Virus record (IMG/VR): IMGVR_UViG_3300029197_000003
Length of the DNA stretch: 64,000 bases
Direction: 5' to 3' (one strand)
Origin: a virus
Below the pieces are notes generated by a model. It searched no databases. It was given only the letters and a program-made list of their open reading frames with translations, and was not told where the DNA came from. A program made the position numbers and the translations under genes. Shown here piece by piece: positions 7,803 through 50,494 of the stretch (position 1 is its first letter; each line of letters opens with the position of its first letter).

Positions 7803-7812
7803 AGGTCAATTA

Positions 7813-8216: not shown

Positions 8217-8264
8217 TTTACTTTATAGTTTAAATCTTATTGTATGGTTTAATATTATAATGCT

Positions 8265-9253: not shown

Positions 9254-9260
9254 AGCGGAA

Positions 9261-9377: not shown

Positions 9378-9386
9378 AATAATGAA

Positions 9387-9506
9387 ATGAGGAAAGAAAT
9401 GATATACTTTACTCTCATATTCTCAATATCAATCGTTTTTGTGATAGTCTTCAACTGGTGGCTATCTTGCACCAAGAACGGCCGCAAATGGCTGAAAGAA
9501 TTATGA
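9387..9506 (+). CDS. 39-aa hydrophobic peptide, paralog 2
   Basis: The product is MRKEMIYFTLIFSISIVFVIVFNWWLSCTKNGRKWLKEL. It shares the architecture of one TM helix followed by TKNG(K/R)(R/K)WL. Confidence 0.4.
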   Translation: MRKEMIYFTLIFSISIVFVIVFNWWLSCTKNGRKWLKEL

Positions 9507-9543
9507 TAAAAACGTCAAAACAAAATGAAGTAATAATAGTATC

Positions 9544-9888
9544 ATGAAGAACATCAATTTAACAAAGAAACATTACTTAGTTTTTGCTCTATCATTATGC
9601 TTATTAACTATAATAGGTGTAATAATAGGGATATGGTTTCACAGTGGACTGCTTCCTAAAAACTTATACTTACAAGAAGTCTACGATGTAAAAATCGTTC
9701 ATACAAACGCCCGATGTGGAACAATTAGACCTCAGGGAATAACAATAACGCCAAGGATAATTAGTAAGGAAAATTTTTTCCGTGAAAAATATTTCGAGGA
9801 GTTTAGAACGTGTGGCGTATGCTTCAATGACAGGCAATTTGAAAGGTATGAAGATGCCGTGAATGAAGCAACGAAACAAAAGAAATAA
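9544..9888 (+). CDS. N-terminally membrane-anchored protein
   Basis: 114 aa. It has one TM helix (YLVFALSLCLLTIIGVIIGIWF) followed by a soluble Cys-containing domain. Confidence 0.45.
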   Translation: MKNINLTKKHYLVFALSLCLLTIIGVIIGIWFHSGLLPKNLYLQEVYDVKIVHTNARCGTIRPQGITITPRIISKENFFREKYFEEFRTCGVCFNDRQFERYEDAVNEATKQKK

Positions 9889-9944
9889 TATTTGTATATT
9901 CAAAAGCCCTACCTTAATCGATAGGGCTTTAAAATTTCCCACCC

Positions 9945-15700: not shown

Positions 15701-16000
15701 AAATATCCATCTGCGCATAATTGCGACTGCTCATAGTGATATAAGCGTTATATGGATTTTCAAAGTCTCCAAGCTTAAAGCCGCCGTTTTTCTCTATGGC
15801 GTGTTGTAAGTCCTGAAGAGGAGAAAGCATGTCAACCCACGCGGTACGTTCAAGGTGCGAACCTCTCGTCACAAGTCTTTCATAAGTATCCTTGGCAAGG
15901 ATTTCCTGCAAATTATCCAGTTCTCCGCGGAGCAAAACGGAGTGCTCCTTCTTCTCCGTGTCGGTCATCGCGTTCTTCCCAGCCTTCAATTTATAACGCA
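12777..16000 (-). other. giant ORF: C-terminal module of about 1,070 aa with a hydrophobic cluster
   Basis: It contains YYIPLRGFDE (about 15226-15262). I recall a PLxRFG-type motif in large phage proteins, but this is unverified. A TM-like cluster AGMLMWDGAAVTLGMLSAMCIPLMLSAIGG lies at about 13805-13915. Confidence 0.35.
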
Positions 16001-31000: not shown

Positions 31001-32615
31001 CATGGTCTCCAAATTGCTTAAGCCGCTCCTGCTCTTTCTTTAGCGCTTCTCTGGCCTGCGCAATCTGCTGTTGCAAATACGTCTCCTTGTATGGAAGTTT
31101 TTTGGAGATTTCGTTATCCAACTCCACCTTGGCTTTTGCTATGGCATCCTCTTCGCTTTCTCCATTCTTAACGACAACAGGCACTATTTGCAATCTGTCA
31201 TCAGGGTTTAACAACACCCCCTCTTCGTTGAATTTTCCTCCTAAACCTATTTTAATAAGTTCCTGCGCATCATCCCATCTGCGCTGCTCAATCATGTACG
31301 GAAAATAGATAATATGGCAGACTTCCCCGTTTTGAAGGAAGTTGCCGACCACTCTGTTTTTCTCGTAGGGGTCTGTATAATCCTTTCCTTCTTCGCCGAA
31401 GGTCATCTTTTCGTATTGCCGTCTGAATAGCTCGCGCTGCGCTTCTACTCCTCCCCTTAAAATGCTTGGGTCTGGCGCTTGAAGCGGTCTGATACGGCCG
31501 TCTTGAAATAATACAAAAATCGTCTTATTCGTGCCATTATTATAAATGTCGCTTGCCATTAAGGCTGTATAATTGGCATGGTACATTCCGTTCAACGACA
31601 CATCGTCGGGGTATGCACCATCGGAGCGTTTCAGTCTTCTCTTTTGGTCTTCCTGCTCTAATTCAGCGGTTATCTTGTTTAATTTATTCTTATCGTAATT
31701 TAATGCTTCATTCCATCTTAATTCAGAAATCCATGCAGGTCTCTCCTTGCCTAATGCTTGAAGATTCCTCGCTTGAAGATAGACCGCATTAGGAGACATG
31801 CTCGCTGTCTCCTGTGTATAAATACTACCAAGCCCTCTAAGAGCCTTCCACTTTTCATACCTCTCCTGAATATCGCCGCCAAGCGATGCAAAAGTGTATT
31901 CCTTTGCACCGCCGCATACTTGATTCTCAAAAGTAAGTGCCGCCTCAAATACTGAATCCAAGTCTGCATCCTTTGGCAATGAGCGTATAGGGATATATCG
32001 TGCTGTCTGATTCAAGCGTACATAAGAATCCTCTTTTGGCTTCTGATAAGCCTTCTTCTTTAGGTCTTTTGCTGCCTGATTTGCGAGTTCTTCAAGGGAT
32101 TTTGAGTAAGCGTTGTTCGATATTTCTTCTGCGGCCTGTAGATAATAGTCCGTTCCTGCATTCCTCATGCGACTTACATTCGGATTGAAATCTTGAAGAG
32201 TGTCGATAGGGCGTTGATTTTCACTGACTGCCTCAGCGCTCACCTCTGGCTTTTCTTCTTTCTTAGCTTCTGGCTTTTTTGTTGGCGTGACTTCCACGGG
32301 CTTCATATCCTTGGATATAGAATCCGCGCCCATAGGCGTTTGTTGTGTCTGCGGGTCTATGGCGTGAAGACCTATCTTTGAAGCAAAATCTTCGTAGGTA
32401 TCGCCAATATAATCTACACCTCCCTTCTTCATAAAGTCGTACACTTCTTTACGATATGTGTAACCCTTTATACCTGGGGCGTAAAAATCATTATAGAAAG
32501 TATCGTAGTCCTTGTCATAGGCATTATTTAACTTCAACGTATTATATAATGCCGTGGAATATTTATCACTGCTGATAGGTCTTTTATCTTCCGTATTCTC
32601 CATATTTATCATCAC
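12777..32615 (-). CDS. giant polyvalent multi-domain protein, 6,612 aa, probably virion cargo or an ejection protein
   Basis: One frame is open for 19,839 nt. The start region GTGATG overlaps the stop of the upstream gene, so the likely ATG is at 32612. The catalytic motifs I could read are listed as sub-features below. Confidence 0.85.
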   Translation of the reverse strand: MMINMENTEDKRPISSDKYSTALYNTLKLNNAYDKDYDTFYNDFYAPGIKGYTYRKEVYDFMKKGGVDYIGDTYEDFASKIGLHAIDPQTQQTPMGADSISKDMKPVEVTPTKKPEAKKEEKPEVSAEAVSENQRPIDTLQDFNPNVSRMRNAGTDYYLQAAEEISNNAYSKSLEELANQAAKDLKKKAYQKPKEDSYVRLNQTARYIPIRSLPKDADLDSVFEAALTFENQVCGGAKEYTFASLGGDIQERYEKWKALRGLGSIYTQETASMSPNAVYLQARNLQALGKERPAWISELRWNEALNYDKNKLNKITAELEQEDQKRRLKRSDGAYPDDVSLNGMYHANYTALMASDIYNNGTNKTIFVLFQDGRIRPLQAPDPSILRGGVEAQRELFRRQYEKMTFGEEGKDYTDPYEKNRVVGNFLQNGEVCHIIYFPYMIEQRRWDDAQELIKIGLGGKFNEEGVLLNPDDRLQIVPVVVKNGESEEDAIAKAKVELDNEISKKLPYKETYLQQQIAQAREALKKEQERLKQFGDHDAVKGSYIPEMFNPSFYKDLLESSTEEGVKRSDEVALARGNIRKLEESIKKYTQALEALRTGDKVGAWGGFLEGISDLDNWTFGLYNLRENLVAVKAHEGKMGQEAKDRLGLARSLSQESMSAFHRHGEGRLYGPAFGAGYSFPFTIGAIATYGAGNVAARGIIRGGSRMAAKYGTNWLFDTTIRATTRLAAINAAGVIDSSFQMPRIISDAAIEKMGLMNYTFDENQRIVVTGTQQEKSWGHSLLHSGLNTLVQNVSERVGTYVLEPVAKAFGIGKISLRSFGEALPYNKTIHMIQNGAFAKAMSKVYGTFEKGGYDGFVNEVLEEYIANPMTATFDENYTFADIFDSRQNLDTALSVWASSIFMLGFSSTASSVKYYRTLRSVNSAYDKAEANARRLFGNENWDKIQNTILRLEGEPLVNAIYAGVCQNKSLSDEQKKAFLNYVRAQKAQAVFNNAVSEKYSFSLTGEELNEMNAMTIHAYAEGRNMQTPQEYAQAQQAFADTREMAMSALGVTDDIDAYLDTLGETPAEQLKKGVEVAKENGLDEKAANAALSAYLNAREQQKGAMDGITSDESIRRQHADSVIRQITFENEADSEGGSGKVILVNVKGREKPVFLIRGRYENGSITGETVVVSEGNGVIEMIPASEVEGIVEESDAMTERQRKYDKIDAENKEQQRLINLNMDTPLAGQGGILMDEEGHRRQVGIKCVFNDEQGNPASVLVVDQNNNDYLIPIDVFREQRGRGRKFEAIEPYLDETDEEYHAAEGPMNEEYNLANKEQEGVSEEDAQGAAEGVTPQSATDATEKPTKPEVKYDYHVKMKDGSGNAVSGRVTNLSADGVEIEFDAPYNGKMVDRIPLADFDSGVSEIADANGNVLWNETEAVGDTEVAPQVDATPTQAGQEDAGKPAIAQAEQEHKPTALERIPKDENGNPIYEQTDAETAFTGLTEEAGNVIEAEEIAKSMVEDKEKALEKAKKIKLPSGVSVAEKVKAAKVRTQAIAKAQEELDKWKAIAEVPAQQRAKVVEERIAKEKAEAEAKRKAEEEAKRASEEAESELNSTIENVLNTIYKKGKDYASKIFNRNFFDFAKAPDFMKHLGMTGSKFTIRYGVIARHFGKDGSHDFTKSEWEQIPHAIEHPFAITQLKNKEKGFRIYTALKTEKGDYVVVGADVKNAGRDIEVNAITTLFGRRSNANLSENEEIIYKSKEITPEQEALLGRPNSDQYPAERELSTDKVTESSPSTQENRPKNSTQSAVKSASAEVETSPTEAQKKAGNYKMGHVKVGAFDVTIENPKGSERSGTDANGKKWSVKMNNTYGYIRGTEGVDGDHIDVFLAEDMDKWDGKYVFVVDQYNPDGTFDEHKVMLGFNSMEEARNAYLSNYEKGWENGRRIDVTAVNLEDFEKWIESSKRKTKPFAEYAGVKKETIGNAPAKEEATPTKAETKQTKTSESKGYTITPSTYTNKKGKTSDVSLLTFDHNLTADQERAVKEFAKERIGEGRFAPARGWKDRESGGWMFRSEEDARKAAEMVGNEEAVADNQPMTAQELRDAVEPKKPTASKKTAAKKPANRVEVADVAEQKPSEPTKAEQPKLNGEKKLVITDEMKHDEDILRELLGIGDEELDGGIKFRDPDAMTSQQRRFVYNAGVNYSLGYIDQGFVKFPEFAKAMVSRLGYKIKPWLKSFYEGAKRIPGYDQAMFTPTEEVDAFDVENFDKPHKDVFAQANMIVEEGKAQVAAEKANNELKATRNEQRKETEKQTAANTDAIGSKATSVASEVENLAETSSDRQELGGASERVDETLDKVNEQLALLGYYEAEQVEKDYNEAYGYMRNAEKKAVKDAANLASQLIDDLGLDRFEATHGEADKKGKRKTKPLAVANIAPLGGDVSMHLPLEEGRELYVNIQLVPSAGRGVAKFEGDNLKVTRIMFRVDNPNGNGRYDRRYGINVWVNKDVTYSELLDKVKREVYKYLPERTEVSDGKFAAGDKVQYSTDGGRTWTDAVVAHPNDEGGYLIDTGLAPVLWVNAHPDQLRHKPESNTISDTELIKRITEHPLFKELVDNNPDAQAARTLLGERIMTDVRLSLRKDGYVETYKKLLNDKGFSEKIADKAFAKRHIVSKNDEGGYFYEDGINEDAVAALPEGIHINDDVTRRSENGGVQHTASEKPVGKPKSAAQKTTKKVKPEQPVGDLFAGPLDKPNNNGTADSNSSSPSQTVAGGERPNTVGIDETGTDGGKRTTAVTGTDGERSTDASRENGREAADGAVHGTDEVGGIQPPVGNRGRDESAANRTVSNGATDERGRVAGPRTVQTGETDGGGKELSSGEPASSTGEGSRPSAVKKQRTPVRKFTNNFHYGTDGNEADNYTPAQRLEGNVSAIEVIAKLFKEGRKATDEEKQILSRFRGWGQIDQLSKFYSVDQMRRNTYGNSPYHRLADAIDTLDPDGKKGVFAGIKRAALSSYYTPTKIASAMNSFLSLAGFKGGTFLDPSMGNGIFEGTLPKDIQGRTMITGVELDWLSGQISRALYPDADVRICGFEKSGLTPNSQDVVTSNVPFGDIEVNDPTWKNDNSPIKRSAQKRIHNYYAVKMLELTRPGGIVAMMTSPAVMDTQSNQHIRRYIAEQGEFLGAVRLPDNTFQGTGAMADIIYIRKWKDEEDAQKTRENPDYVAREQAFLSSAETTAPNKRNGEKQKVSHNAYYASNRKNMIGDVVAGNQYNDKSFGLHSELTTDQIAKEVEKAVKRIVGDRKGMLFDTTRTSREVKQAVREEYKGDGNWVSTGNLVIQDGKVGVLTATKNEYGEVTRVFEEQPQLAKQKMRIIAMGEVRTAMKELIAGQIDGLSDTKLNMLRAKLKRAYGEFVSKYGKLQDTDNAVILSDIDGYTLQALEVWKGGKFQGLSDIFTKNTIKPALKLEDAKTPQEAITTSLAEYGEIRGEYIEKTLGADWFEQCGDLVFKEPNATDRYVTRDEYLSGDVVAKLEEAKTAAATDPTFERNVKELEQVQPATIPFDDITIHLGARWIPQEVLNDFVKETLGLHASSSRNYEWVDGERREIIKSGVVYVPETDSFEINIEEKELGGQADDWKTADKSIKEIFQVALEDKDFRIVRKDKDGNTWIDQEATELANSKVADLREHFEQWLPGNDARIQIMERAYNDRFNRIVLRKWDGSHLNVPGLMGKELRPHQKDAVWMLINNRGGIVDHIVGAGKTLVMQSAIMEMRRMGIAKKPMIVALKSTVPQIAREFKEAYPTARVLAPSEKDFSTENRKKFFANISLNDYDCIIVSHEQYCKIPHSEEAEGDVVNEQLAQLDAMIEYLYGTGDKSQLTKRQIKSLEKRRQNLHAKLEKRLDRSTDREFCFENMGIDYLFVDECHQFKSLPYVTSYQNVAGLGEASGSNKAVALLTGIRHLQKMHQGDKGTVFLSGTTITNSLVEIYNLLNYLRPRKLEQLGMPTFDAWASTFAVHSSELEAGVSNEFKMKDRFRYFDNVPELSQLYAEIADVRNDYNLQLPKPKVDGKTVIVPQSDAVAEINREVVKMLRTKDGSYFGIHPINPKKFPWGLVASGISAKAAVSPRLVFPDMDDSVGKISYCCDNIKKSYDEMKEQKGVQLVFCELGVPTKGNKYDAYHDIINRLTKDYGIPRDEIAYIQQVKNDTEKEALFQKVRDGKVRILIGGTRNMGTGVNVQTRITDLHMLTVPWQPADLEQCIGRGSRQGNVVAHDFLNNKVRVHYYATEGSLDLYKYQLLDAKGKMFTQFKMGTISGERSFDEGDADENGNIDPAQMVALLSGNPIIFEKSKQDKLVKKLKSLYNGFLRDQQRKRQNYETVTKKVENLKRLISLSDSDVHDLQREGFKPDDKGTYPSKVKVTVEDSYYGQNFDKPKEAGQYILEQLKNNKKVVLAGFGQRADIVFVTDDDLLSSHYEVQIGGNNAWSIRYTKRMPQDPTQAGLVFRSLLEQIIHNNEVYHREYDTNSEMLKTMPKGDAPFSKQKELDEAIAKQKELDAEYNKLGQSEEDKTKFRLLDADDPKAMELEALPDSELVPVYRNVQAFEDDTLGSPMAFSDAETGERRTLEGGKWNYSNPPQIKLTDEQQRKLDELNKNGYIMVDGKKSTELQINDGLKFVKPKTKEAQLQYFLKKNPKDKGLWAAYDPYDHAIETPLNTQFGEANKRPNLVVVRSLIPKSEIDEPFHADYALLPTGAHQWNNGRTLYLSRWSKIDKVLTREEEAKMIDEYWKKHPGKREALKSHRDYNRFVPQVRRELEKMGYRFELDGKELTPVESLALDKQNWEGRDVIPGREGQLPFISNEDIARINAKTAGKWVGEPKEVMESAMSERVTELSERLHTPVRIIRTEAEVAALPSVRQRRMKGSFNPITGEVTIVVSNNANMADIENTFVHEVVGHDGLRVLFPDEAKLNNALDELYRVSKDEIRGTIDRMAQKMYDAEVDRLRERKRKEHEAKGEDTNTLYHTDIEKARSEASKKSEQFRRDATEEYAADLAGRIGESGFETMSAEELTFWGKLTTILQKALQKLLDGLKIPGKRKWSDKDWAFILHEAYKRKKNGGKPTVFDAADTVVMRRKTGFGDTKFSDGKVEENHQVATTIADMKKRVTELFQKAKTGEFVGKPASIGRLSADGKAYLEKLSDLKFKEFVDFVLNPSDLNHIRSDHYGENEKDKGNNVPLTDEDIQNMVDVLNQPDGILYGVDKKDGRKLFFFLKDAGNGLYNLTEVCSTKKGNLTAKSFFKSKKKGISQRVMEIKDSLLPTSVTYSGEFLSSDAKIPTLFDINESSSKNVADGGIMFRNDDIGLEETITKIKVEAAQAAQKATENLNLGGRVVVHESAEGLEGREATAKGWYDTRTGQIHVVLSNNTDAADVTQTILHEAVAHHGLRELFGHNVMDAFLDSVLAAASQEVKDAINELRRGKGWNFRTATEEYLAGLAERTDFERMTAEERGLFATLRRLFNRALEFLGLKNRELSDRELAYILWCSYQNLKTGEKGRYVAEAERIAMRYKLKAGKNAMTDTEKKEHSVLLRGELDNLQEILAKDTYERLVTRGSHLERTAWVDMLSPLQDLQHAIEKNGGFKLGDFENPYNAYITMSSRNYAQMDIYKRTLYADMIEAIHALGSETGRSYEEIKTYVMAKHGMERQKYMAGKAAEEAYDRYKSMHPFGQKTLDYFIDEYEEKSFAGLTELFGTQSVSEAMDEAQKYVEEVEAEAGSLTDSMWDSIRAATKSSLQRAYEAGLISKETYDNVSSMYQYYIPLRGFDEATSDEVYEYFGDQTINGGTGSFMKKAKGRKSVADDPFAVIGNMAEMAIMQSNRNLMKQQLLNLALNHPSDLISVSDLYVKFDEDYDNGDGTRGAWVPVAVPDTSGMTTEEANQVMLDFQDDMEEKVKDEPDTYALAHQKPHIPYRVLGRNMNEHQVMVKRGGKTYILTINGNPRAAQAINGLLNPDATENPGAIALKAMTNWIARMATARNVEFAISNAMRDLEFSTTLIPKEGTEYYGRYVKNYLTCVKNIGRLVNRLNGNTLDMSNPLEKAFYDFIYNGGETGYTFMKGVERYKGEITKALSELRAKEGKSKIERLSNKVVYGHHYVINDAWNIYMKGAEYLSRCTEDWVRFAVFLTSRQMGRSMEQSIMDAKEVTINFNRKGAGSKSAGKWDVSNFFSMNNLHFLSAYAASVFKNFYAFSNASIQGLDKNVRLHLNHTAGMLMWDGAAVTLGMLSAMCIPLMLSAIGGDPDDYWDMPESMRRMGIMLPLGKDGRFLTLPMSIEHRAAYGIGELLGTVVCGSENLPASEITFQAFEQLSQILPLDLTEGNGSMLSLVPTAVRPEVEIAFNKNWLGMPIYKEPFNKNTPAFRNVYQSTNPNYIAMSKWLNEVQGGGDYERAGVQVNPAMVQHLVESYTGGAGKFVSRTSGVIAKIIQGEQIRSNEIPFYRTLVKSVDDRTHNRAARERFQREYDKGQKLIYKIDNYQKESARGNSQYVKELDEFAKSKDFMSYMLWKSYNSVKSQFDNARSYIGDDKDKRAALDHAQMLVQKIMTECARAVEDSKTQEEADEKIGRIQSEYTPQIKETLSKVEE
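16020..16480 (-). other. giant ORF: zincin-like HExxH module 2, paralog of module 1
   Basis: The sequence is IHVVLSNNTDAADVTQTILHEAVAHHGLRELF, with HEAVAH within 16368-16394. The same downstream pattern (TEEY.A.LA.R...F..M.AEE..F...L) occurs in module 1. Confidence 0.55.
16770..17160 (-). other. giant ORF: nuclease-like module 2, PBECR-like, tentative
   Basis: The sequence is IGRLSADGKAYLEKL...NPSDLNHIRSDHYGENEKDKGN...LFFFLKDAGNGLYNLTEVCSTKKGNLTAKSFFKS. Confidence 0.3.
17345..17925 (-). other. giant ORF: zincin-like HExxH module 1
   Basis: The sequence is TIVVSNNANMADIENTFVHEVVGHDGLRVLF, with HEVVGH at 17823-17840. Confidence 0.55.
19850..21480 (-). other. giant ORF: SF2 (SNF2/DEAD-like) helicase module
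   Basis: Motif I is VGAGKTLV (about 21392-21412). Motif II is DECH (20907-20918). Motif VI is QCIGRGSRQGN (about 19880-19915). Confidence 0.8.
23190..23975 (-). other. giant ORF: N6-adenine DNA methyltransferase module
   Basis: Motif I is GGTFLDPSMGNGIF (about 23528-23570). Motif IV is SNVPFGD (23343-23360). Confidence 0.75.
26780..27185 (-). other. giant ORF: family-I inorganic-pyrophosphatase-like module
   Basis: TIENPKGSERSG...NNTYGYIRGTEGVDGDHIDVFL (27001-27060) parallels E. coli PPase [21 protein letters not shown]. Confidence 0.55.
27420..27780 (-). other. giant ORF: nuclease-like module 1, PBECR/barnase-EndoU-like, tentative
   Basis: The sequence is KIFNRNFFDFAKAPDFMKHLG...IARHFGKDGSHDFTKSEWEQIPHAIEHPF...YVVVGADVKNAGRDIEVNAITTLFGRR. 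It has conserved His residues followed by short beta strands. I assigned it by resemblance only. Confidence 0.3.
30520..30605 (-). other. giant ORF: Gly-zipper/hydrophobic segment near the N-terminal quarter
   Basis: The segment is GPAFGAGYSFPFTIGAIATYGAGNVAARG. Confidence 0.4.
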
Positions 32616-34027
32616 TTAAATACTTGTAAATCATTAGATTGTTTGATAGGCTTCGTTTCGCCATAGCTAACCCATTTTCCCTTGCTTCTGTCGAACTTTA
32701 TACGCTTCCCTTTATCGTTATAATAGACCGCGCTGCTATTCTGCTTGGCAGAAGGGATGTATCTATAACCTCCCTTTTGGGTGGTTTTTCCAGCCCCAAA
32801 CATAGCACCATTCCTCTCTGATGTAGAGTTAACATAAGCGCCCTTGTACTTCTTTGCTGCCGCATTAGCTTCTGCCTCGGTTGCATAGACGACATGGACG
32901 GTGAACTCCTTGGCCCTCTCGGCATTCCCAGTCCCTCTCGGAACGTAGATATATCGGTTCATGCGCCCCTGCTTATCTGGCTTGCCTGTGCCGCCTGCAC
33001 TTGTTTCGCTCCTATACTTATCGGCTGCTGCCTGATTTCTCGCAATGGTAGACGCGCCGACGGCAGCGCTTGTCGCGGCACGTTGCTTGGCAACATTGAG
33101 CATGCCCTCGTTATGTCTTCTTTGGTCTTCTGCTCTCTGTTTGTCGTTCTCGGCTTTTGCCTCCGCTGCTCTCTTGCGCGTATCAGCATCTTGTTCCTTG
33201 ATTTTAAGCTCAGATTGGGCAATAACGCGGTTGAAGGCGTCTTGTGCAAGTTTCTCTCGTGCTGTTTTTGCGGAAAGTTCCTGCTGCACGGCTTGCGTGT
33301 CAAGGCCGTATTTTTCTTTGAGAACCGCCATATACTTTGCAGCGTCCTTCTCGCGCTGTGCTACCATCTTATCCCATCGTGCCAAATTGGCCTTACTCAT
33401 AGAGGCATTGGGATTATAAGCGTTAGGTGCGCCCTTTGTCGTGAAATAAAGGTTGGAAAGCGCTTGGATGCCGTCACTGATAGCTGAATACAAAGCTCTC
33501 TGTTTGGCTCGCTTGTTCTCGCGTTCTTCCTTCTCTTTGGTGCGCTTAAGGCGGTCTAATGTCTCGTTGAGATAGTTGTTTAATTCCGTCAGTGAGTTGA
33601 CCTGCGCCTTATATGCTTCTGAGGGTGCTTCGCCCTTCTCGTTCAAAACGCGATTGTAGGCTTGCTCTGGCGTCTCATCAATGTTGGTTGGTGGTGTGGC
33701 GGTCGCCTGTGGCGTTGTCTGCTGTGCTGCCTGCGGTATTCCGTATTTCTGCGCATAAAGTTGCGTGGCAGTTTTCATATTCTGAGGTTCATATAACTGC
33801 GACTGCGGAATGTTAAGCGGTGGATTGCTCGCCAATGATGCCTCTGTAACCGCTGGTCTCTGCCCATAGTTCGGATTGGTGTTACCTTGGATGGCAGAAG
33901 GCGCTTGCCCTCCAGAAGAGGTCTGACCATTCTGCCAGTCCACGGGATATTGAGGATTAGCCTGCGGTGTGACAGGCTGCTCCTCCTGTTTTGGTTTAAC
34001 TCCTAAGATGTCACTTATTGCACTCAT
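32612..34027 (-). CDS. low-complexity Q/P/A-rich coiled-coil protein, a virion or ejection protein candidate
   Basis: 471 aa. It has a Q/P-rich N-terminus, K/E/A coiled-coil segments and a basic C-terminus. It is coupled to both neighbouring genes by overlapping stops and starts. Confidence 0.4.
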   Translation of the reverse strand: MSAISDILGVKPKQEEQPVTPQANPQYPVDWQNGQTSSGGQAPSAIQGNTNPNYGQRPAVTEASLASNPPLNIPQSQLYEPQNMKTATQLYAQKYGIPQAAQQTTPQATATPPTNIDETPEQAYNRVLNEKGEAPSEAYKAQVNSLTELNNYLNETLDRLKRTKEKEERENKRAKQRALYSAISDGIQALSNLYFTTKGAPNAYNPNASMSKANLARWDKMVAQREKDAAKYMAVLKEKYGLDTQAVQQELSAKTAREKLAQDAFNRVIAQSELKIKEQDADTRKRAAEAKAENDKQRAEDQRRHNEGMLNVAKQRAATSAAVGASTIARNQAAADKYRSETSAGGTGKPDKQGRMNRYIYVPRGTGNAERAKEFTVHVVYATEAEANAAAKKYKGAYVNSTSERNGAMFGAGKTTQKGGYRYIPSAKQNSSAVYYNDKGKRIKFDRSKGKWVSYGETKPIKQSNDLQVFK

Positions 34028-34572
34028 ACTTTTGCGTCGGTTTTCTGTTTCAAATCCTTTTTAGCATCTGCCATCTCGTCAAAAGCAAGCCCCGCCGTTG
34101 CTGCGGCTTGTCCGACACCTTGGATGGCGGCTGCGGTATTAGCTTGTTGTTGCTGAGACATCTGTATCCGTCTGTTGGCGAAGTTCTGCGTGTTGGCGAG
34201 ATGCTGATGTTCGATTGCGTCACGTTGCGCCATGCCTTGTGCGTTGATATTGCTCGCGGTCTGAGCGATGGCATTGTTGTTTTGTTCGCGTGCAGCCGCT
34301 GCTGCCGCCGCCGTGCCGCCCATCACGGCACTCTGCCCTGCCGCCGCCTGATTACGTTTGCGGATGCTGTCTTGCGTCATCGTGATAAGGCGCTGTGCAG
34401 AGGCACGCTGTGTATTGTCAGTATTGTACTCCCTGTCATACCAAGCCTTCTCTGCCGCTTCCTGCTCTTTGAGGAGACGGCGTTGTTTACGGGCTTCACG
34501 AGCATTCTTGATGCCGCCGAAGATGGCGCTTGCTGCGCCGACACCTGCTGAAATAGCTGTTCCTATTGCCAT
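34024..34572 (-). CDS. A/Q/N-rich small virion-type protein
   Basis: The start is taken at MAIGTAISAGVGAASAIFGG (ATG at 34572). It has an N-terminal Gly/Ala hydrophobic segment followed by a Q/A/N-rich helix. Confidence 0.4.
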   Translation of the reverse strand: MAIGTAISAGVGAASAIFGGIKNAREARKQRRLLKEQEAAEKAWYDREYNTDNTQRASAQRLITMTQDSIRKRNQAAAGQSAVMGGTAAAAAAAREQNNNAIAQTASNINAQGMAQRDAIEHQHLANTQNFANRRIQMSQQQQANTAAAIQGVGQAAATAGLAFDEMADAKKDLKQKTDAKV

Positions 34573-34655
34573 AGTAGTCTGTTTTATAAAGATATATATA
34601 TGAGGCAAATATAATCATGTATCTTTGCTATCGGTTTATAACTTTATAAAGCGAA

Positions 34656-37406: not shown

Positions 37407-37895
37407 CTATCCTCGCTTTTTGCTCCTCTTGGAATAAACAAAATAATACCACGCGCCAATTATCATCAGCAATACCGCTGCAAACTGAAACAAGCAGTCT
37501 TTGAATCGCTGCAAAATCGGCGGTTTCTCCTTCACCGTCTTGTTTTCTTTCTCCTTTCTCGTCTCTTTCTTGTCCGTTACACTCGTCTGCTGCTCTTCCT
37601 GCTTAGCATTGATAAAGTGCTTTGCGTTTCGGTTAGAAATGATTTTCTTTTCGCGTTCCGTATCGGTGCGAAGAACCTTGCCATCTGAATCAACCGTTAC
37701 CATTGTTAGCTCGGTAATAAAGACGGTGTCGGAGAGATATACGGTGTCAGCAATCGTAAGAATCTGCCGTTGTATCAACGTGTCACGTCTCTCTATCCTC
37801 ACTGAATCCGTGAACTCTTTCTCAACGATCGTTGTCTTGCGCGAACATGAAACAAGAGAGAGAAGAACAATAAAGAATAACAATGCCTTTTTCAT
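37407..37895 (-). CDS. unimolecular spanin candidate
   Basis: The start MKKALLFFIVLLSLVSC contains a lipobox (LVSC). A C-terminal TM helix, FQFAAVLLMIIGAWYYFVY, is followed by a basic tail. Its ATG overlaps the upstream stop as ATGA. Confidence 0.55.
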   Translation of the reverse strand: MKKALLFFIVLLSLVSCSRKTTIVEKEFTDSVRIERRDTLIQRQILTIADTVYLSDTVFITELTMVTVDSDGKVLRTDTEREKKIISNRNAKHFINAKQEEQQTSVTDKKETRKEKENKTVKEKPPILQRFKDCLFQFAAVLLMIIGAWYYFVYSKRSKKRG

Positions 37896-38152
37896 ATCAT
37901 CGCAATCAAAATGCCTGCAACATCGCAAAAGAAGTCCTTCCACTCTGATGTTCCCTGCCCTGTGAATCTGTCGAGCAATTCCTTGGAAACGGCAACCAAC
38001 AGCATGACGGCTACCATAACCCATACTGGCAGGAAGATAAGTGCCATCTTGGAGATAATAGTCATTACGATAATATGTGTAAGGCCATCAATGCTAAGTG
38101 AGGCAGCGAAGCCTGCCACCTTGCTGCATAGCTTGTAAAACCACTTAATCAT
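37892..38152 (-). CDS. holin-like membrane protein
   Basis: 86 aa with 3 hydrophobic helices. It lies between the endolysin and the spanin, with overlapping stops and starts. Confidence 0.45.
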   Translation of the reverse strand: MIKWFYKLCSKVAGFAASLSIDGLTHIIVMTIISKMALIFLPVWVMVAVMLLVAVSKELLDRFTGQGTSEWKDFFCDVAGILIAMI

Positions 38153-38682
38153 TTGTTCAAAATAAGATTGTCGTACATAATTGAATTAATTCGGCGTTCC
38201 CATCCTCTAAGGTTTTCTTGCTGGCTCTTGTCGTTCTTAACAATACTCTTGACGAACAACAACCGCATTTGCTTGATACGTCCAAACAACGGCAAGCCGC
38301 TTGTGCTGTTGACGGCAGCCAACGTCTTGTTGCCGATGATGCCGTCAACCTTCACGCCTACGAGCTTCTGTAATTGTCGCGCCGCCGTGCCAACGCCGCT
38401 TGCCCATGCCCAATCAACCATGATGTTAGCAACATTCTGGTCTGCTACCTTGTCAAGTCTCAGCGCATCCCAGTACATGGTTTTGAAAATCTCCTCCCAT
38501 TCGCTGGTAGTCATCGCTTTCAAGGTTTCAACCGTTGCAGGCTTGCCCTTTTTAGCGCAATACCCTCGCCACGTGTTTATCGTCACGCCCTTGTTTGTCG
38601 CGCCTCCTCTGTCGTTCTTTCGGTTGCAAAAACCGCCCTCCCATGATAAAATGAAGGGAATTATTTGTTTGTAATTTGCCAT
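38149..38682 (-). CDS. endolysin: GH108-type lysozyme plus a peptidoglycan-binding domain
   Basis: ILSWEGGFCNRKNDRGGATNKGVT matches the GH108 EGG...D.GG.T..G motif. The C-terminal VKVDGIIGNKTLAAVN is PG_binding_3-like. Confidence 0.8.
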   Translation of the reverse strand: MANYKQIIPFILSWEGGFCNRKNDRGGATNKGVTINTWRGYCAKKGKPATVETLKAMTTSEWEEIFKTMYWDALRLDKVADQNVANIMVDWAWASGVGTAARQLQKLVGVKVDGIIGNKTLAAVNSTSGLPLFGRIKQMRLLFVKSIVKNDKSQQENLRGWERRINSIMYDNLILNK

Positions 38683-41958: not shown

Positions 41959-42858
41959 TTACTTGTTTTTATTCTCCCCTCCAACAAGATTAATATTCGT
42001 AATCTCGATAACGTTCAGAAGGCGCATCGTAAATTCATGCCATTCCTTTTCGAAAGGAGCAACCATCTCTGGCGTGACGTGAATCTTATTCAGCGTACCA
42101 ATGATGTTGACGATAAATCCTTTGACGTTGACAGCCTCAAACATACCTTGGTCGTGCTTCATAAAGAACTCGTACAAGTCAATCCAACAAAGGCCCTTGA
42201 ACACCACATCCTTAATGATGTTGGTTGTATGCGTCAGAGAATCTTTACGCATTCGATAGGTGTAGCCGATGGTGTCAGCATACGCTACCTTGTTCGCAAA
42301 GAACATCATCGGAATAATGGTCGGCGTGTCCTCGATATAACGCCTATCGCTATATGGGACTTTGTTGCAGATTTCCTTGCGGATTATCTTGTTATTCATG
42401 AACACAATGCGCTCACCCCAAAACTTGGCAACCTTGTCGCGGCCTTCCGTTATGCAATTGCCGTAGGACGTGGCATCCCATGAGCCATCCTCTTTGAGGA
42501 TTTTCACGCCGCCGCTGACAATATCCGCGCCTGTAGCATCGGCTCTCGCAAGCAGTCTCTTGACAAAATCAAGGTCAATGTAATCATCGCCATCAAGCGT
42601 CATTACATATTCTGCATTTGCGTAGTCAATGCCGCGTCTGCGCGAAAGGCCAGCGCCAACATTCTCTTCATTCTCCAAGAGAGTAATTCCCTTGATTCTT
42701 CTGAGGATGTCAAGCGTACCGTCTGTTGACTTATCTTCAACGACAATAACCTCACACTTCTCTGTCTGATTCAAGGCGCTTGCAACACTCTGTTCAATAT
42801 CTCTTTCAACATTGTATGCCGTAATAACGATGGCACATCTGTACATTTTTCTATTCAT
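41959..42858 (-). CDS. family-2 glycosyltransferase
   Basis: The sequence CAIVITAYNVERDIEQSVASALNQT...VIVVEDKSTDGT...NVGAGLSRRRG...TLDGDDY carries the GT2 DxD/ED pattern. Confidence 0.8.
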   Translation of the reverse strand: MNRKMYRCAIVITAYNVERDIEQSVASALNQTEKCEVIVVEDKSTDGTLDILRRIKGITLLENEENVGAGLSRRRGIDYANAEYVMTLDGDDYIDLDFVKRLLARADATGADIVSGGVKILKEDGSWDATSYGNCITEGRDKVAKFWGERIVFMNNKIIRKEICNKVPYSDRRYIEDTPTIIPMMFFANKVAYADTIGYTYRMRKDSLTHTTNIIKDVVFKGLCWIDLYEFFMKHDQGMFEAVNVKGFIVNIIGTLNKIHVTPEMVAPFEKEWHEFTMRLLNVIEITNINLVGGENKNK

Positions 42859-42922
42859 ATTTCTTGTATGAGAGGATTAGGCAGGATGCACATCTGTACA
42901 CCCTGTCTAAATGTTAGTTTGG

Positions 42923-44263
42923 CTATGCCAGTTTCAAAAGGTCTTCCAAAGCGGAGACACGCCTTGCCAAAGCAGAGATGTCATTGGCGGTGGCGGCGGT
43001 AATTACTTGATAAGAACCTTCTATTTCTTTTCCCCAATTCAAAATACCATCTTCGTCAACCGAAAGCTCTACATTATTGGCAATTTTTACTCCACTTCCA
43101 ATTGCAACTTTATGTGCAACATCGTGTATAGCGACTAGGCTCGTCCCAAGATTTGTGCCTATTATTGTAGTATCAGAAATATCGACACCTTCTCCAATAG
43201 TAACATTTTTATGAATATCGACACCTTCATAAAAACGGATACCACTAGTAAAACCAGCACGAGTCAAACCAATAGCATCAAAACTCTCGCTATTTTCAAT
43301 TAAGATTTTTTCACCAATTTGCGCACCAGTACCAATAGATACATTACCATAAATATAAGCCTTAGGACGAAGAATCGCATAATTTATGCCATTCAAATCC
43401 GAAAATTGATATCCTCCTCCAACGACATCACTCTCTTTTACAATCTTCACATCCCCAATCTTTCCATCCACCGCATCAAGTTTCACCTTATCAGCAGCAG
43501 ACATAACACCAGCCGTGGTAGAGGTGGCAGGAAGAATACCAAGGTCACTTTCCGTAGTCGCCTCTCGTCCGTTGACAAAGGTAATGGTCTTCTTGAATGA
43601 TACGCCATTATCCTGCGCAAATTCCTCCTGTGCGAATTTCACATTTGCAACGGCGGTGTCTTCAATTTCGCTCTTCTTGGCATAGCTCGTCAAATCCTGC
43701 AAGCCCTGCAAAGCGTCCCAGTTCTTGGTGGCAGCAGGGTCAATGGCAGCACTAAAAGCAGTAACACATACCACGTTCACGCCAGCAGGATAAGCCTTGC
43801 CGTCAATGGTTATGGCATCGGTGATATTCCACACATCGCCAGCCTTTGCAGAAGTGAGAGCCTTCAACTGAGCGGCAGTGCATGAACCCTTAGTTGTGTA
43901 GACACTTCCAAGGGCAGAAACCTTCTGGTCTGCATAGCTCTTGGCAGAAGCGAGAGCGCTGTTAGCCTTCGTAGTCGCGTCTGTGGCGGCAGCACTGACG
44001 GCCTCCGTCTTCTTGGTGTCAGCATAGCTCTTCGCTGATGTCAGCGTGGCAGTGTCCTTGCTGTCAATTTCGCTCTTTGAATAAGTTTTGCCGCTTGCAG
44101 AGGCGATAGATGCTTTCAACTCTTTGTTGATGTCGCTCTGTAATTTATCCTCTTCAAGGTCAACGACCTGTGAGGCTTCAACTGCAACACCGTCACTCGT
44201 GTCTGATTTGATACGAGATGTATACTTGATATAATCGGATGCTACTCCGTATTTTTTTGCCAT
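42923..44263 (-). CDS. tail fibre protein
   Basis: 446 aa. It has repeated SAKSYAD...K fibre repeats and a C-terminal beta-helix-like region of G-x-hydrophobic hexapeptide-type repeats. Confidence 0.65.
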   Translation of the reverse strand: MAKKYGVASDYIKYTSRIKSDTSDGVAVEASQVVDLEEDKLQSDINKELKASIASASGKTYSKSEIDSKDTATLTSAKSYADTKKTEAVSAAATDATTKANSALASAKSYADQKVSALGSVYTTKGSCTAAQLKALTSAKAGDVWNITDAITIDGKAYPAGVNVVCVTAFSAAIDPAATKNWDALQGLQDLTSYAKKSEIEDTAVANVKFAQEEFAQDNGVSFKKTITFVNGREATTESDLGILPATSTTAGVMSAADKVKLDAVDGKIGDVKIVKESDVVGGGYQFSDLNGINYAILRPKAYIYGNVSIGTGAQIGEKILIENSESFDAIGLTRAGFTSGIRFYEGVDIHKNVTIGEGVDISDTTIIGTNLGTSLVAIHDVAHKVAIGSGVKIANNVELSVDEDGILNWGKEIEGSYQVITAATANDISALARRVSALEDLLKLA

Positions 44264-47194: not shown

Positions 47195-48637
47195 TTACTT
47201 ATGTGCAAGCTGCACGCGTGCATGTGCCTTTGGATAGCGTAGGTACAAGCAGGAGATTTCCTGCAAAACCGCTGCATCCGTGTTGCGGATTCCTGCCTTC
47301 TTCAAATCAAGGACGTTGCGCTTGAACGAAAGGAAGGTTTTCTTTGTGAGGTATTCGGGGTCAAGCACAAAGCCGCAATCCTTCATCTCGCACTGATTAA
47401 ACAACTCGTGGTGAATGGTGAGGATTTCGCCGAAATCGGTTTCCCATGATTTAAACTTCAAGTTCCATTTCTCAACAGAATCCTTCAGGCGGAATTTCTC
47501 TGACTTAACCTTTGACAGGGTAGCAAGGAGGTCGGAGCCACAGAACATAATCTTGCGGCCGTTACTCAATCCTGTACCTACAAAGATGTCGCGTGAGAAG
47601 TCAACCAAGTCGTCATCGCTAATAACGCAAGCGTTTTCCTTTTCGTCCCAATGGCCAATGGTGTACTTGGGGCAACCCATCCACCAAATACCCTTGGTGA
47701 AGTAACGAGCCATACCGTCTTTTGAGGCATGCTTAATAACATTCTTGTCGCCGAAAAGAATACTCATCTCCTGGGTCACACGCATATCGTAGATAGCGTC
47801 TTCTTCGAGGTCGGTGAAGTTCCAGTCAACTTCCTTATCGCTCATCTTGTCAATCGTAGACTGTTCCACCTGAATCATGTAGTTCTGGCAGTACTGCTCT
47901 TCTGCGGTCGGCAGATTATTGAATCGGCCAGTCTGTACATCCAATTCTCCGCATGACTTCCCCATACGTACAAGAACGGTCTTTGCGTTGATGGCAGGAA
48001 GCCAAATGTTGTTGCTCGTCTCGGTTGAAACCTCACCATTAACGGCAAACACCTGCGGATAACCTTCGCTGTCCTTTCCGCACACGCAAAGGACGAGGTC
48101 GGGCACCACTTCCTTCTTGGCGTCATAGGCGGAACCATTCTCCTTGGTGACAGCAGGAACACCGCAAACGCGAATAGTATCATCAATAGTGAAGATATTT
48201 GGGTCTTCAACCTTGAGTGATACGCGGTCGCCGCCAGTCTGCTTAACTACCGCTTCTTTAAGAAGGGTCTTAGTTGGACGTGTTCCTACGCTGTAGTACT
48301 TGACAATAAATGAATCCGTCTGTTGGGCGCTTGCCTGTCGGCTGATTTGGTCAATCGGCGTTGCCATAGGACGGATTTTGCAAATCTTCTGGTCAATGTC
48401 TTTGACGTAGAAATCGGGGTCTCCGTTCTCTCGTCCGTGCTGCATGGTGGCGGCACCTTCAACATTCATAGGCTTTTCTGGGCTTGCCGTGCCGCTGTCG
48501 GTCTTACCTGCGTCGGGCAAATCGGCGGCGGCAGCCATCATGACATTACCGCCTGCACCCAAGACAAAGCATAATACACTAAGAAGCAGGAAGCCAACAA
48601 ACTTCATTGCTCCTTTAAAACTGATAGTCTGTTTCAT
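47195..48637 (-). CDS. major capsid protein (HK97-fold type) with an N-terminal hydrophobic leader
   Basis: The start is taken at MKQTISFK, 22 nt after the scaffold stop. The core has IDQKICKIRPMATPIDQISR...TDFGEILTIHHELF...VLDPEYL...ISCLYLRYPKAHA, a pattern typical of capsid proteins. It lies downstream of the scaffold gene and is followed by a strong terminator. Confidence 0.65.
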   Translation of the reverse strand: MKQTISFKGAMKFVGFLLLSVLCFVLGAGGNVMMAAAADLPDAGKTDSGTASPEKPMNVEGAATMQHGRENGDPDFYVKDIDQKICKIRPMATPIDQISRQASAQQTDSFIVKYYSVGTRPTKTLLKEAVVKQTGGDRVSLKVEDPNIFTIDDTIRVCGVPAVTKENGSAYDAKKEVVPDLVLCVCGKDSEGYPQVFAVNGEVSTETSNNIWLPAINAKTVLVRMGKSCGELDVQTGRFNNLPTAEEQYCQNYMIQVEQSTIDKMSDKEVDWNFTDLEEDAIYDMRVTQEMSILFGDKNVIKHASKDGMARYFTKGIWWMGCPKYTIGHWDEKENACVISDDDLVDFSRDIFVGTGLSNGRKIMFCGSDLLATLSKVKSEKFRLKDSVEKWNLKFKSWETDFGEILTIHHELFNQCEMKDCGFVLDPEYLTKKTFLSFKRNVLDLKKAGIRNTDAAVLQEISCLYLRYPKAHARVQLAHK

Positions 48638-49532: not shown

Positions 49533-49595
49533 CAAAAGTAATTATAGTTAACTGCCAAATTCGCTTATCTTTATAACGGTAATTTATTATCTTTG
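49533..49595. promoter_or_regulatory. divergent late promoter region with two TAnnTTTG boxes
   Basis: The minus-strand box TACTTTTG is the reverse complement of 49533-49540 and points toward the scaffold gene. The plus-strand box TATCTTTG lies at 49588-49595 and points toward 49618. Confidence 0.4.
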
Positions 49596-49617: not shown

Positions 49618-50016
49618 ATGAAGAAAAAGTTTAGTACGATAGAATACGAGGGCGAGAGAGCGAGAGAGGTTATACATGCCTGTCGGGAGACAATGAAAAA
49701 AGTGAAGCATATCAATGTCCTTGACATCTTCGCAGAGGCCGTCAAGCAGCCATCGTCTCGCTACTGGGTAAGCGAGGACCGCGCAATCTATGTGATGCGT
49801 CGGATGCTTCGTGGTGACGACCTGTCTTACATGAGGCAGACGAAGCGAAAAATGTTCTACGAGCTTTTCTGGCGGTTCATCGAATGCAAGAGAAAGCACG
49901 AGGATGCAGGCGTGTGTAATATTGTCCGAAAGATAATATACACGCCTGCATCCTCATTTTTTCTCACATCGGCATCAGCAAAGGCAATATATTATAAGCA
50001 TAAGGATGAAAAATAG
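49618..50016 (+). CDS. hypothetical protein, small-terminase candidate by position only
   Basis: 132 aa. It is the first gene of the operon that contains TerL. Confidence 0.3.
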   Translation: MKKKFSTIEYEGERAREVIHACRETMKKVKHINVLDIFAEAVKQPSSRYWVSEDRAIYVMRRMLRGDDLSYMRQTKRKMFYELFWRFIECKRKHEDAGVCNIVRKIIYTPASSFFLTSASAKAIYYKHKDEK

Positions 50017-50494
50017 CAATCTTGACATAAATATCTTGTTGGCGGTCTCGTTGGCGCTTTTCGTGTTATCGTTCATCAGCCAAGATTCCGTGCAAATTTC
50101 ACGGAATATGGCCTTAAATCGCCTATTTTATCCCCTTTTTCACGCCAACTCGATTCATGCGATTTTAAATATATTTTGCATTCTTCAATTGGCGTTCTAT
50201 TACCGCATGTCGCGTTGGTATCTGCTGGCATCTTACATCATTGCCGTAACGGCACCTTCCAGCCTTATTGAAGGGACGATTGGTTTTTCTGGGGTTATCT
50301 TCGCAGCACTTGGCCTATATTCGATGATAGTAACAAGAGGGTGGGTGATTGCCGCTCATGTGGCCTTATATTGTTCGCTGACGGCATTATTTTCGTGTGT
50401 GAATACTCTACTGCACCTTTATTGTTATGCGGTTGGCTTCGTCTGCTCACTATTAATAACTGAAAAACAATGGTGGAGATGGAGAAAGATATAG
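50006..50494 (+). CDS. rhomboid-family intramembrane serine protease
   Basis: 162 aa with about 6 TM helices. FHANSIHAILN fits the TM2 H..xxH...N motif. GFSGVIFAALG fits the TM4 GxSG motif, with the Ser codon at 50288-50290. LLHLYCYAVGF supplies the TM6 His and Gly. Confidence 0.7.
   Translation: MKNSNLDINILLAVSLALFVLSFISQDSVQISRNMALNRLFYPLFHANSIHAILNIFCILQLAFYYRMSRWYLLASYIIAVTAPSSLIEGTIGFSGVIFAALGLYSMIVTRGWVIAAHVALYCSLTALFSCVNTLLHLYCYAVGFVCSLLITEKQWWRWRKI

Follow-up and report, generated by a model that had tools for sequence, protein, structure and literature searches.

A mini-rhomboid gene held in the packaging operon of temperate Bacteroidales podophages, with the capsid leader as its possible substrate

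The current analysis concerns a putative intramembrane protease gene of a virus, IMG/VR record IMGVR_UViG_3300029197_000003, whose 64,000-nucleotide (nt) stretch of DNA is referred to here, at its full length, as the window. A previous sequence-only reading had described an open reading frame (ORF) of 162 amino acids (aa) with about six hydrophobic helices and the three rhomboid signatures in the correct order, overlapping both a small upstream ORF and the start of the gene for the large terminase subunit (TerL). All of these features were found in place (Table 1). The translation contains FHANSIHAILN, GFSGVIFAALG, and LLHLYCYAVGF, in that order, and the overlaps amount to 11 nt with the small ORF and 25 nt with TerL. 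The key residues are R39, H46, H51, and N55 (transmembrane segment 2, TM2), G93-x-S95-G96 (TM4), F99, and H137 with G144 (TM6). The operon composed of the small ORF, the rhomboid gene, and TerL is presumably a late one. The genes for the major capsid protein (MCP) and for an acidic protein encoded upstream of it lie on the minus strand in a separate, divergent operon. The position of the latter gene is conserved, and both its position and its composition suggest that the product is scaffold-like.

Table 1. Features of the window, with positions counted from its first nucleotide.
Feature	Position	Strand	Basis or remark
Mini-rhomboid intramembrane serine protease gene	50006..50494	+	162 aa, 6 TM; ORF and motifs, profile, fold
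Predicted catalytic Ser95 codon TCT	50288..50290	+	Equivalent to GlpG Ser201; aligned to GLSGV of GlpG
Predicted catalytic His137 codon CAC	50414..50416	+	Equivalent to GlpG His254; alignment
His51 codon CAT	50156-50158	+	
Asn55 codon AAT	50168-50170	+	
Small ORF, 132 aa, function unassigned	49618..50016	+	phrog_27246 (1.3e-28)
TerL, 706 aa	50470..52590	+	phrog_2 terminase large subunit, 1.8e-21
Bacteroides-type -7 box TATCTTTG	49588..49595	+	Faces small-ORF/rhomboid/TerL operon; 22 nt before ATG 49618
Partner -7 box TACTTTTG	49533..49540	-	Faces scaffold/MCP operon
MCP, SU10/HK97 type, 480 aa	47195..48637	-	Pfam SU10_MCP 6.3e-28; phrog_26635 4.6e-211
MCP leader and conserved motif, residues 1-45	48503..48637	-	Candidate rhomboid or signal peptidase cleavage region
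Acidic protein upstream of MCP, 277 aa	48660..49493	-	phrog_22323 6.7e-83 (unassigned function)
Unimolecular-spanin-like protein, 162 aa from internal Met	37407..37895	-	Lipoprotein signal MKKALLFFIVLLSLVSC; C-terminal TM LFQFAAVLLMIIGAWYYFVY, then KRSKKRG
Multi-TM protein, 86 aa	37892-38152		
GH108 endolysin with peptidoglycan (PG)-binding domain	38149..38682	-	Pfam Glyco_hydro_108 2.2e-23, PG_binding_3 2.2e-10
Holin-like membrane protein, 164 aa	39909..40403	-	Phage_holin_4_1 1.8e-5, 25.3 bits vs cutoff 22.2; TM segment

As a single sequence, the protein scores 17.8 bits (E 0.004) against Pfam Rhomboid, for which the gathering cutoff is 22.6, and phmmer returned no match in the PDB. The PDB likewise yielded no match to a 12-sequence profile, PHROGs had none to the protein, and the NCBIfam models, rhombosortase included, had none at E <= 1; hhalign against one GlpG sequence gave a weak result (prob 2.6%). 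An exhaustive profile search recovered 328 representatives (50%-identity clusters) at E <= 1e-3 and 129 at E <= 1e-10, nearly all of them 150-175 aa long, and the deep family alignment comprises 127 members with 25-58% identity to the query. The profile of these 127 members matched GlpG rhomboid chains only in the PDB, with H. influenzae GlpG 2nr9 as the best match (E 8.7e-10, positions 9-161) and E. coli GlpG at ~1e-6. It places G93-F-S95-G96 on G199-L-S201-G of GlpG, H137 of TM6 on H254, and H46, H51, and N55 of the TM2 pattern H-x4-H-x3-N on H145, H150, and N154, so that the placement within the rhomboid family and the alignment of the catalytic Ser and His, both of which had been proposed from the motifs by eye, are supported by the profile search. 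PF01694 is matched individually by 113 of the 127 members (best 2.1e-11), and a precomputed match to the same family is present in most relatives.

The conservation pattern within the family is equally instructive. Only five columns of the 127-member alignment are invariant, namely H51, N55, G93, S95, and H137, which places the rhomboid signatures beyond chance resemblance. R39, H46, P84, and G103 are nearly invariant (H46 in 126/127 and R39 in 115/127), and G144, seven residues after the TM6 His, is found in 113/127. In a set of 100 distinct rhomboid genes, all taken from loci of related phages, S95, H137, H51, and G93 are kept in 100/100 and N55 in 99/100, position 99, the equivalent of GlpG Y205, is always aromatic, and the median pairwise ratio of nonsynonymous to synonymous substitution rates (dN/dS) is 0.18. 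Judged by its conserved residues, the rhomboid is under selection and is predicted to be catalytically intact. Within the 'WR' motif of the first loop (L1), the Arg is kept (R39, aligned to GlpG R137) and the Trp is absent; L1 itself is ~10 residues shorter, and the residue three positions after the TM6 His is Cys, not Gly.

Structure prediction points the same way. AlphaFold2 performed poorly on 12 close homologues (predicted local distance difference test, pLDDT, 45), and on the deep alignment it reached a pLDDT of 90.9 and a predicted TM-score (pTM) of 0.87, with helices at residues 4-21, 49-65, 70-81, 95-105, 112-126, and 134-160 and an L1 helix at 36-44. This model has the six-TM rhomboid core that the fold check was meant to reveal, and GlpG is its best structural match: the top 10 Foldseek matches in the PDB are all GlpG (prob 1.00, TM-score 0.58-0.70), followed by iRhom1 and Der1, and the matches in BFVD are 'GlpG-like' proteins of uncultured Podoviridae and Siphoviridae. 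Lys plus Arg residues number 6.8 in the predicted cytoplasmic loops vs 1.7 in the predicted periplasmic loops, and by the positive-inside rule this bias indicates a GlpG-like topology, N-in/C-in, with the active site toward the periplasm. Given the profile, the PF01694 matches, the fold, the invariant catalytic residues, and the topology, membership is secure, and the ORF at 50006-50494 almost certainly encodes a rhomboid intramembrane serine protease (PF01694 / MEROPS S54).

When the distribution of the gene is examined, it is evident that it belongs to a phage lineage rather than to passing cargo. We retrieved 80 IMG/VR loci via the capsid gene, not the rhomboid, and 79 of these carry enough flanking sequence to be informative (locus L028 is incomplete); the order small ORF, rhomboid, TerL is found in 79/79. 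Synteny is identical in relatives whose rhomboids are 34-43% identical, and even rhomboids only 25-28% identical to the query (loci L120-L122) occupy the same slot. The conserved layout consists of an SU10-type MCP gene and a gene of ~262 aa on one strand, from which the small ORF, the rhomboid, and a TerL of ~700 aa diverge with overlapping ends, and a P22-type portal and a polyvalent protein of 4,700-5,700 aa are encoded close by in the relatives' loci. The rhomboid is found in this slot in the cultured temperate Bacteroides phages BKO1-TP3 (gp50), BS-TP4, and BF1-TP2 (gp59) as well. Among GTDB species representatives, a scan with an alignment of close relatives found nothing, and one with a mid-diversity alignment gave 27 loci in Bacteroidales genomes, the hosts being Bacteroides, Phocaeicola, Prevotella, Alloprevotella, Butyricimonas, Muribaculaceae, Rikenellaceae, Leyella, and others. 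Some of these copies lie in large chromosomal contigs (prophages) and some in contigs of ~60-68 kb. The full arrangement is present in 24 of the 27 loci, the remainder being one incomplete locus, one unrelated cellular rhomboid, and one rearranged locus.

In the rearranged locus (L148, Leyella stercorea An906, 5080-11112), the small ORF and the rhomboid are still an overlapping pair, located directly after the polyvalent protein gene, and TerL lies 3 kb downstream in the opposite orientation, beyond a gene of 889 aa. In all linked loci, the small ORF is immediately upstream of the rhomboid and overlaps it. An identity of the small ORF as a small terminase subunit (TerS) is not supported, as no Pfam or PDB family is recognized in it and in the rearranged locus it accompanies the rhomboid, not TerL. 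The concern that homologues might occur only as host-derived cargo is contradicted by their tight linkage to phage genes, and the rhomboid can be regarded with very little doubt as a vertically inherited core gene of the phage. The lineage itself is a large group of temperate Bacteroidales podophages whose capsid is of SU10 type and whose portal is of P22 type, and which encode a giant polyvalent protein; the window encodes an integrase (9945-11165), which indicates that its phage is temperate as well. As a separate observation, two metagenome-assembled genomes (MAGs) labelled Bacillota or Eubacteriales (loci L134 and L143) carry this otherwise Bacteroidales-restricted phage module. Locus L143 is a contig of 68.7 kb, approximately one phage genome, which suggests a mis-binned phage contig; the argument is not applicable to L134, a contig of 151 kb.

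The two operons also appear to be tied together at the level of transcription. The TAnnTTTG box that the sequence-only reading had placed upstream of the rhomboid operon at 49588-49595 is present, and together with a partner box on the opposite strand it forms a divergent promoter pair within the 124-bp intergenic region. Such boxes are not significant by count alone, with 62 in the window vs 46.7 +/- 6.9 expected, and this line of support was set aside. Their positions are a different matter. Among 65 distinct homologous intergenic regions, the plus-strand box is found in 53, mostly 15-41 nt before the ATG, the minus-strand box in 60, and both in 51, compared with a background rate of 0.00041 per nt, or ~0.05 per region expected by chance. 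These positions thus indicate that one conserved region of divergent promoters serves the rhomboid operon as well as the scaffold/capsid operon.

A second feature of the locus is found at the N-terminus of the capsid protein. The start of the MCP, ATG 48637, was set by comparison with 55 relatives; the listed 533-aa capsid ORF from 48796 is a 53-codon upstream over-extension that overlaps the scaffold-like gene. From this start, the protein reads MKQTISFKGAMK-FVGFLLLSVLCFVLGAGG-NVMMAAAADLPDAGK, in which MKQTISFKGAMK is followed by the hydrophobic FVGFLLLSVLCFVLGAGG and then by N-V32-M-M-A35-A-A37-A-D-L40-P-D-A-G44-K, and the SU10_MCP core begins only from approximately residue 76. The hydrophobic capsid leader that had been claimed at 48503-48637 is therefore present at the MCP N-terminus. 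Leaders were compared by inspection over 55-64 distinct sequences. All distinct leaders share an n/h/c architecture composed of a Lys-rich start, a hydrophobic stretch whose sequence varies while its character stays constant, and the motif G-A-[SG]-[SG]-G-V-x-M-A-x-A-x-x-L-P-D/E-A-G-K-T-x-x-G. V(-8), A(-5), A(-3), LP[DE]AG, and G(+9) are invariant in 64/64 leaders, and M(-6) is nearly so. The linker that follows is acidic and rich in Gly, Thr, Ala, and Asp, with a mean net charge of -5 over 40 residues, and is probably disordered.

It is conceivable that such a leader could be an artefact of ORF extension, with the true start at the Met-Met of the motif. This was rejected, since neither Met is invariant and an upstream ATG is always present. 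The leader of locus L121 reads V-L-L-A-A-A-T-A-LPDAG with no Met near the motif, the leader ATG lies 21-99 nt past the scaffold stop with one outlier, and the basic-then-hydrophobic character is kept, all of which argues for a genuine N-terminus. Leaders with a related hydrophobic-x-M-A ending are found in BF1-TP2 (47% MCP identity), in locus L122 (26-30%), and in locus L149, where the MCP is barely detectable, and in locus L150 the leader ends differently; all four also carry the rhomboid. A survey of related phages for co-occurrence of the rhomboid with a leader-bearing capsid gene had been suggested previously, and its outcome is clear: the leader is present in every informative rhomboid-bearing relative. 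In a tblastn comparison of TerL with the annotated TerL of 331 phage records, the nearest relative in this annotated phage collection is MW202692. This phage and phage SU10, whose MCP begins MANPTLFVSY, are outgroups with neither rhomboid nor leader, and both are distant.

Based upon these features, the most likely substrate of the rhomboid is the capsid protein's own N-terminal leader, an assignment that we hold at somewhat below even odds. The recognition motif of rhomboids consists of a large hydrophobic residue at P4, a small one at P1, and a hydrophobic one at P2', with P3 and P1' free to vary (PMC2941825). The invariant V(-8), A(-5), and A(-3) of the 64 leaders have the P4/P1/P2' spacing and chemistry, and the P3 and P1' positions vary likewise. 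Furthermore, G-A-[SG]-[SG]-G immediately before the motif is a helix-destabilising type of element such as rhomboid substrates need. The capsid leader had been named previously as one of several nearby candidates; its co-inheritance with the rhomboid across deep divergence and its conserved motif with P4/P1/P2' spacing strengthen its position. Taken as a whole, the account in which the mini-rhomboid is a core gene of the lineage and the capsid leader its substrate falls just short of an even chance.

A possible sequence of events can be proposed. The leader would target the capsid precursor to the inner membrane or hold it there. The rhomboid, made together with the terminase, would then cut V32-M-M-A35↓A36-A37 (P4 = V, P1 = A, P2' = A), and, once detached from the membrane by this cut, the capsid protein or procapsid would be available for assembly and packaging. 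In this scheme, the rhomboid would be the functional counterpart of a capsid maturation protease, embedded in the membrane. We put the probability that a membrane-anchored MCP precursor is matured or released by the phage's own rhomboid, co-expressed with the terminase, at roughly one in three.

Several points weigh against such a role. Firstly, canonical rhomboid substrates are of type I/III, N-out/C-in (PMC2941825), and the Lys-rich N-terminus and the linker of net charge -5 predict the opposite orientation, N-in/C-out, for the leader. Read literally, that orientation implies export of the capsid body, a nonsensical outcome for a tailed phage. Secondly, the fit to the recognition motif is imperfect: the most divergent relatives have Pro, Gly, or Asp at the putative P2', a poor match, and Asp, which is non-preferred, stands at P1' in 25/64 leaders. 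Thirdly, A-x-A is also a textbook signal peptidase I site, so that the host LepB could cut the leader. Fourthly, the co-occurrence of rhomboid and leader is inseparable from shared ancestry; MCP seeds from the window, BF1-TP2, and locus L122 recovered rhomboid-bearing phages only, and neither a leader without a rhomboid nor a rhomboid without a leader was encountered. Leader cleavage and the mature capsid N-terminus are themselves predictions from sequence.

The alternative that survives best, although we consider it unlikely, is that host signal peptidase I removes a Sec-type leader at A35-x-A37, with the rhomboid performing some other job in the same membrane, such as disposal of the cleaved leader peptides, tens of thousands in number, or processing of another phage membrane protein. 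The n/h/c layout, the invariant small residues at -3/-1 (A-x-A), and the helix-breaking Gly upstream all fit signal peptidase, the N-in orientation that is non-canonical for rhomboids is the signal peptidase type, and the window does encode other single-pass membrane proteins. However, signal peptidase requires only small residues at -3/-1, which leaves the invariant V(-8), LPDAG, and G(+9) and the near-invariant M(-6) unexplained, and it offers no reason for the universal retention of the rhomboid beside TerL under purifying selection. The signal peptidase I substrates of Bacteroidetes also commonly have Gln at +1 (the 'Q-rule'), and the +1 residue of the leader is S/T/A/G, not Gln, although this is only a weak hint.

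It is improbable that the rhomboid acts instead on host inner-membrane proteins, whether in the envelope, as a transporter, receptor, or defence protein, or in quality control, with the leader being unrelated. Bacterial rhomboids do cleave membrane proteins of the host, including TatA (PMC3712462) and orphan complex subunits (PMC7232013), and the rhomboid genes of other phages, gp93 of Stenotrophomonas DLP3 and DLP5, are found among moron-like genes. Accessory host-modulating genes, however, are typically sporadic and located in variable regions, whereas this rhomboid is fixed in the packaging operon across very deep divergence, under a structural-gene promoter region and not within the lysogeny module.

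Cleavage of a lysis protein by the rhomboid, either the u-spanin at 37407-37895 or a holin, which would tune the timing of lysis, appears quite improbable. The u-spanin architecture is the sole one of its kind among the ORFs of the window. Its C-terminal TM has the canonical N-out/C-in type I orientation and F-Q-F-A↓A-V would supply P4 = F, P1 = A, and P2' = V, and holin-like proteins are likewise present, but a motif of this type is short and common in TM helices, and the lysis genes are 10-12 kb from the rhomboid in another transcription unit. Moreover, phages that have the rhomboid in common differ in their lysis cassettes. The endolysins of BKO1-TP3 and BF1-TP2 differ from that of the window, neither phage encodes a lipoprotein u-spanin, and both have a different spanin-like protein with an N-terminal TM; lysis proteins are thus not co-inherited with the rhomboid. 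For this reason, the proposal that the holin or the spanin could be its target has lost ground, and neither is retained as a primary, lineage-wide substrate. The least probable reading by far is a non-proteolytic Derlin- or iRhom-like membrane-thinning chaperone or dislocase that inserts or extracts the capsid leader or another client, for although the pseudoproteases iRhom1 and Der1 were also recovered in the fold search and the proteins of the family are unusually short, with L1 and L5 cut back, S95, H137, H51, N55, and G93 are kept in >200 sequences and pseudoproteases characteristically lose catalytic residues.

The observation that no classical prohead protease is visible in the window agrees with our scan, which detected no protease domain of Pfam in the head-module proteins that it covered. 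The lack of a prohead protease is the norm for scaffold-using podoviruses of the P22/SU10 type, and it consequently carries little weight for the proposal that the rhomboid processes the capsid.

Several additional observations concern other genes of the window and its relatives. The spanin-like proteins of BKO1-TP3 (gp38) and BF1-TP2 (gp45), encoded at L152 21270-21836 (-) and L153 24662-25129 (-), have a conserved C-terminus, rich in Gly and aromatic residues and with Phe or Trp as its last residue, that is reminiscent of an outer-membrane insertion signal; two different spanin-like solutions therefore exist within one phage lineage. Near the integrase, the lysogeny/early regions (9035-9888 (+) and 4399-5607 (-)) encode small membrane proteins of 72 aa (2 TM), 114 aa (N-terminal TM), 45 aa, and 78 aa, for which superinfection-exclusion or moron functions are possible and which are formally candidate rhomboid substrates. 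A single ORF of 6,612 aa occupies 12777-32615 (-). Its equivalents in relatives, 4,700-5,700 aa long, have ddrB-ParB, LPD, MuF_C, and helicase domains, with the label 'DarB-like antirestriction' in BKO1-TP3, and the giant protein is probably an ejected polyvalent anti-defence protein. Between it and the portal lies a gene for a 194-aa protein (34024-34608 (-)), which may be an ejection protein that acts on membranes. Its N-terminus, MAIGTAISAGVGAASAIFGG, is weakly hydrophobic and rich in Gly and Ala, and relatives lack the protein at the equivalent position. Within the block of structural and tail genes, 41959-44263 (-) encodes a family-2 glycosyltransferase (1.6e-29) and a hexapeptide-repeat protein, which may serve surface-polysaccharide modification or a tail fibre role.

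Parts of this picture are already in the public record. A 98%-identical protein has the label 'MAG TPA: Rhomboid protease GlpG', and both BF1-TP2 gp59 ('rhomboid family intramembrane serine protease') and the BS-TP4 rhomboid are so labelled. Other labels are misleading: TerL is called 'tail spike protein' in GenBank PQ571269, PQ571277, and PQ571263 (L017 / L098), and BKO1-TP3 gp50 is called 'glycoside hydrolase', with the MCP labelled only as a DUF2951/DUF5309 protein. The paper describing BKO1-TP3, BS-TP4, and BF1-TP2 leaves the rhomboid unmentioned and reports BS-TP4 in 31% of 930 Chinese viromes (PMC12694917). A 2025 review of the rhomboid superfamily never mentions phages or viruses, and our literature search returned no paper on a functional phage rhomboid or on signal-peptide-bearing capsid proteins. 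This is in line with the earlier remark that a rhomboid is not a standard morphogenesis or lysis component. Nor did we find a published description of the fixed packaging-operon slot across the lineage, the pairing with a leader-bearing capsid protein, or the motif match.

Bacterial rhomboids are nearly universal, and few have a known substrate or role. A rhomboid locked in a packaging operon beside a leader-bearing capsid gene yields a specific enzyme-substrate hypothesis, in a lineage with three cultured phages (PMC12694917). If the capsid link is true, a defined role would be assigned to a viral rhomboid for the first time, and an intramembrane protease would for the first time have a part in phage head morphogenesis. 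It would constitute a new class of capsid maturation enzyme, and HK97-fold assembly could then start from a membrane-tethered precursor. It would also provide a natural rhomboid substrate of type II orientation, and capsid assembly would be linked to the inner membrane in a lineage of Bacteroidales phages that is abundant in the human gut. The combination of a capsid leader and a core rhomboid would surprise a specialist in phage assembly or in rhomboids, and the mechanism carries a real topological difficulty. If the capsid link is wrong, a defined, phage-specific subfamily of mini-rhomboids still stands, which at ~160 aa is near the minimal catalytic core and useful structurally. There is annotation value as well, given the TerL and rhomboid mislabels in GenBank records of cultured relatives and the prevalence of the lineage in human gut viromes.

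The known systems to compare include other viral rhomboids. The gp93 proteins of the Stenotrophomonas phages DLP3 and DLP5 are annotated as rhomboids, that of DLP3 among accessory, moron-like genes (PMC7326821). Together with the 'GlpG-like' proteins of BFVD, they resemble the rhomboid of the window in size (~155-205 aa) and fold; however, DLP3 gp93 lies outside the packaging operon, and no function and no connection with a capsid leader has been described for the DLP3/DLP5 proteins or those of BFVD. With GlpG of E. coli and H. influenzae, the phage protein has in common the six-TM core, the H/H/N of TM2, the GxSG of TM4, the TM6 His with Gly at H+7, the Arg of the L1 'WR' (R39 = R137), the aromatic residue at Ser+4 (F99 = Y205), and the predicted topology. 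GlpG differs in being 276 aa long with a cytoplasmic N-terminal domain that the phage protein of ~160 aa lacks. The latter has a shortened L1 of ~22 residues without the WR Trp, a very short L5 cap, and Cys at H+3, and it is a core phage gene in a packaging operon.

In function, the nearest analogies are the AarA-TatA pair of Providencia stuartii and rhombosortase. In the AarA-TatA pair, the rhomboid trims the N-terminus of a protein that then homo-oligomerises, as is proposed here for the capsid protein. The TatA site, I-A-T-A↓A-F, follows the rule of a hydrophobic P4, a small P1, and a hydrophobic P2' (PMC2941825 and PMC3712462), and the candidate capsid site V-M-M-A↓A-A obeys the same logic. 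TatA, however, is N-out and keeps its TM after cleavage, whereas the capsid leader is predicted to be N-in and would lose ~35 residues to give a soluble product. In cellular organisms, rhombosortase is a dedicated rhomboid paired with a conserved C-terminal GlyGly-CTERM tag. The likeness to it is one of concept only, in that a specialized rhomboid is co-inherited with a conserved TM-plus-motif tag on its client. The rhombosortase tag is C-terminal on cellular clients and the candidate phage tag is N-terminal on a capsid protein, and the phage rhomboid, as far as its sequence indicates, is not a rhombosortase. Neither does it appear from its sequence to be a prohead protease of the HK97 gp4 or T4 gp21 type. 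Those enzymes are soluble and of another fold, they are built into the interior of the procapsid as it assembles, and their genes usually lie between those of the portal and of the scaffold/MCP, so that the analogy would be purely functional: removal of an N-terminal capsid segment during morphogenesis, as proposed here for the rhomboid. The T4 prohead is also membrane-associated until proteolysis.

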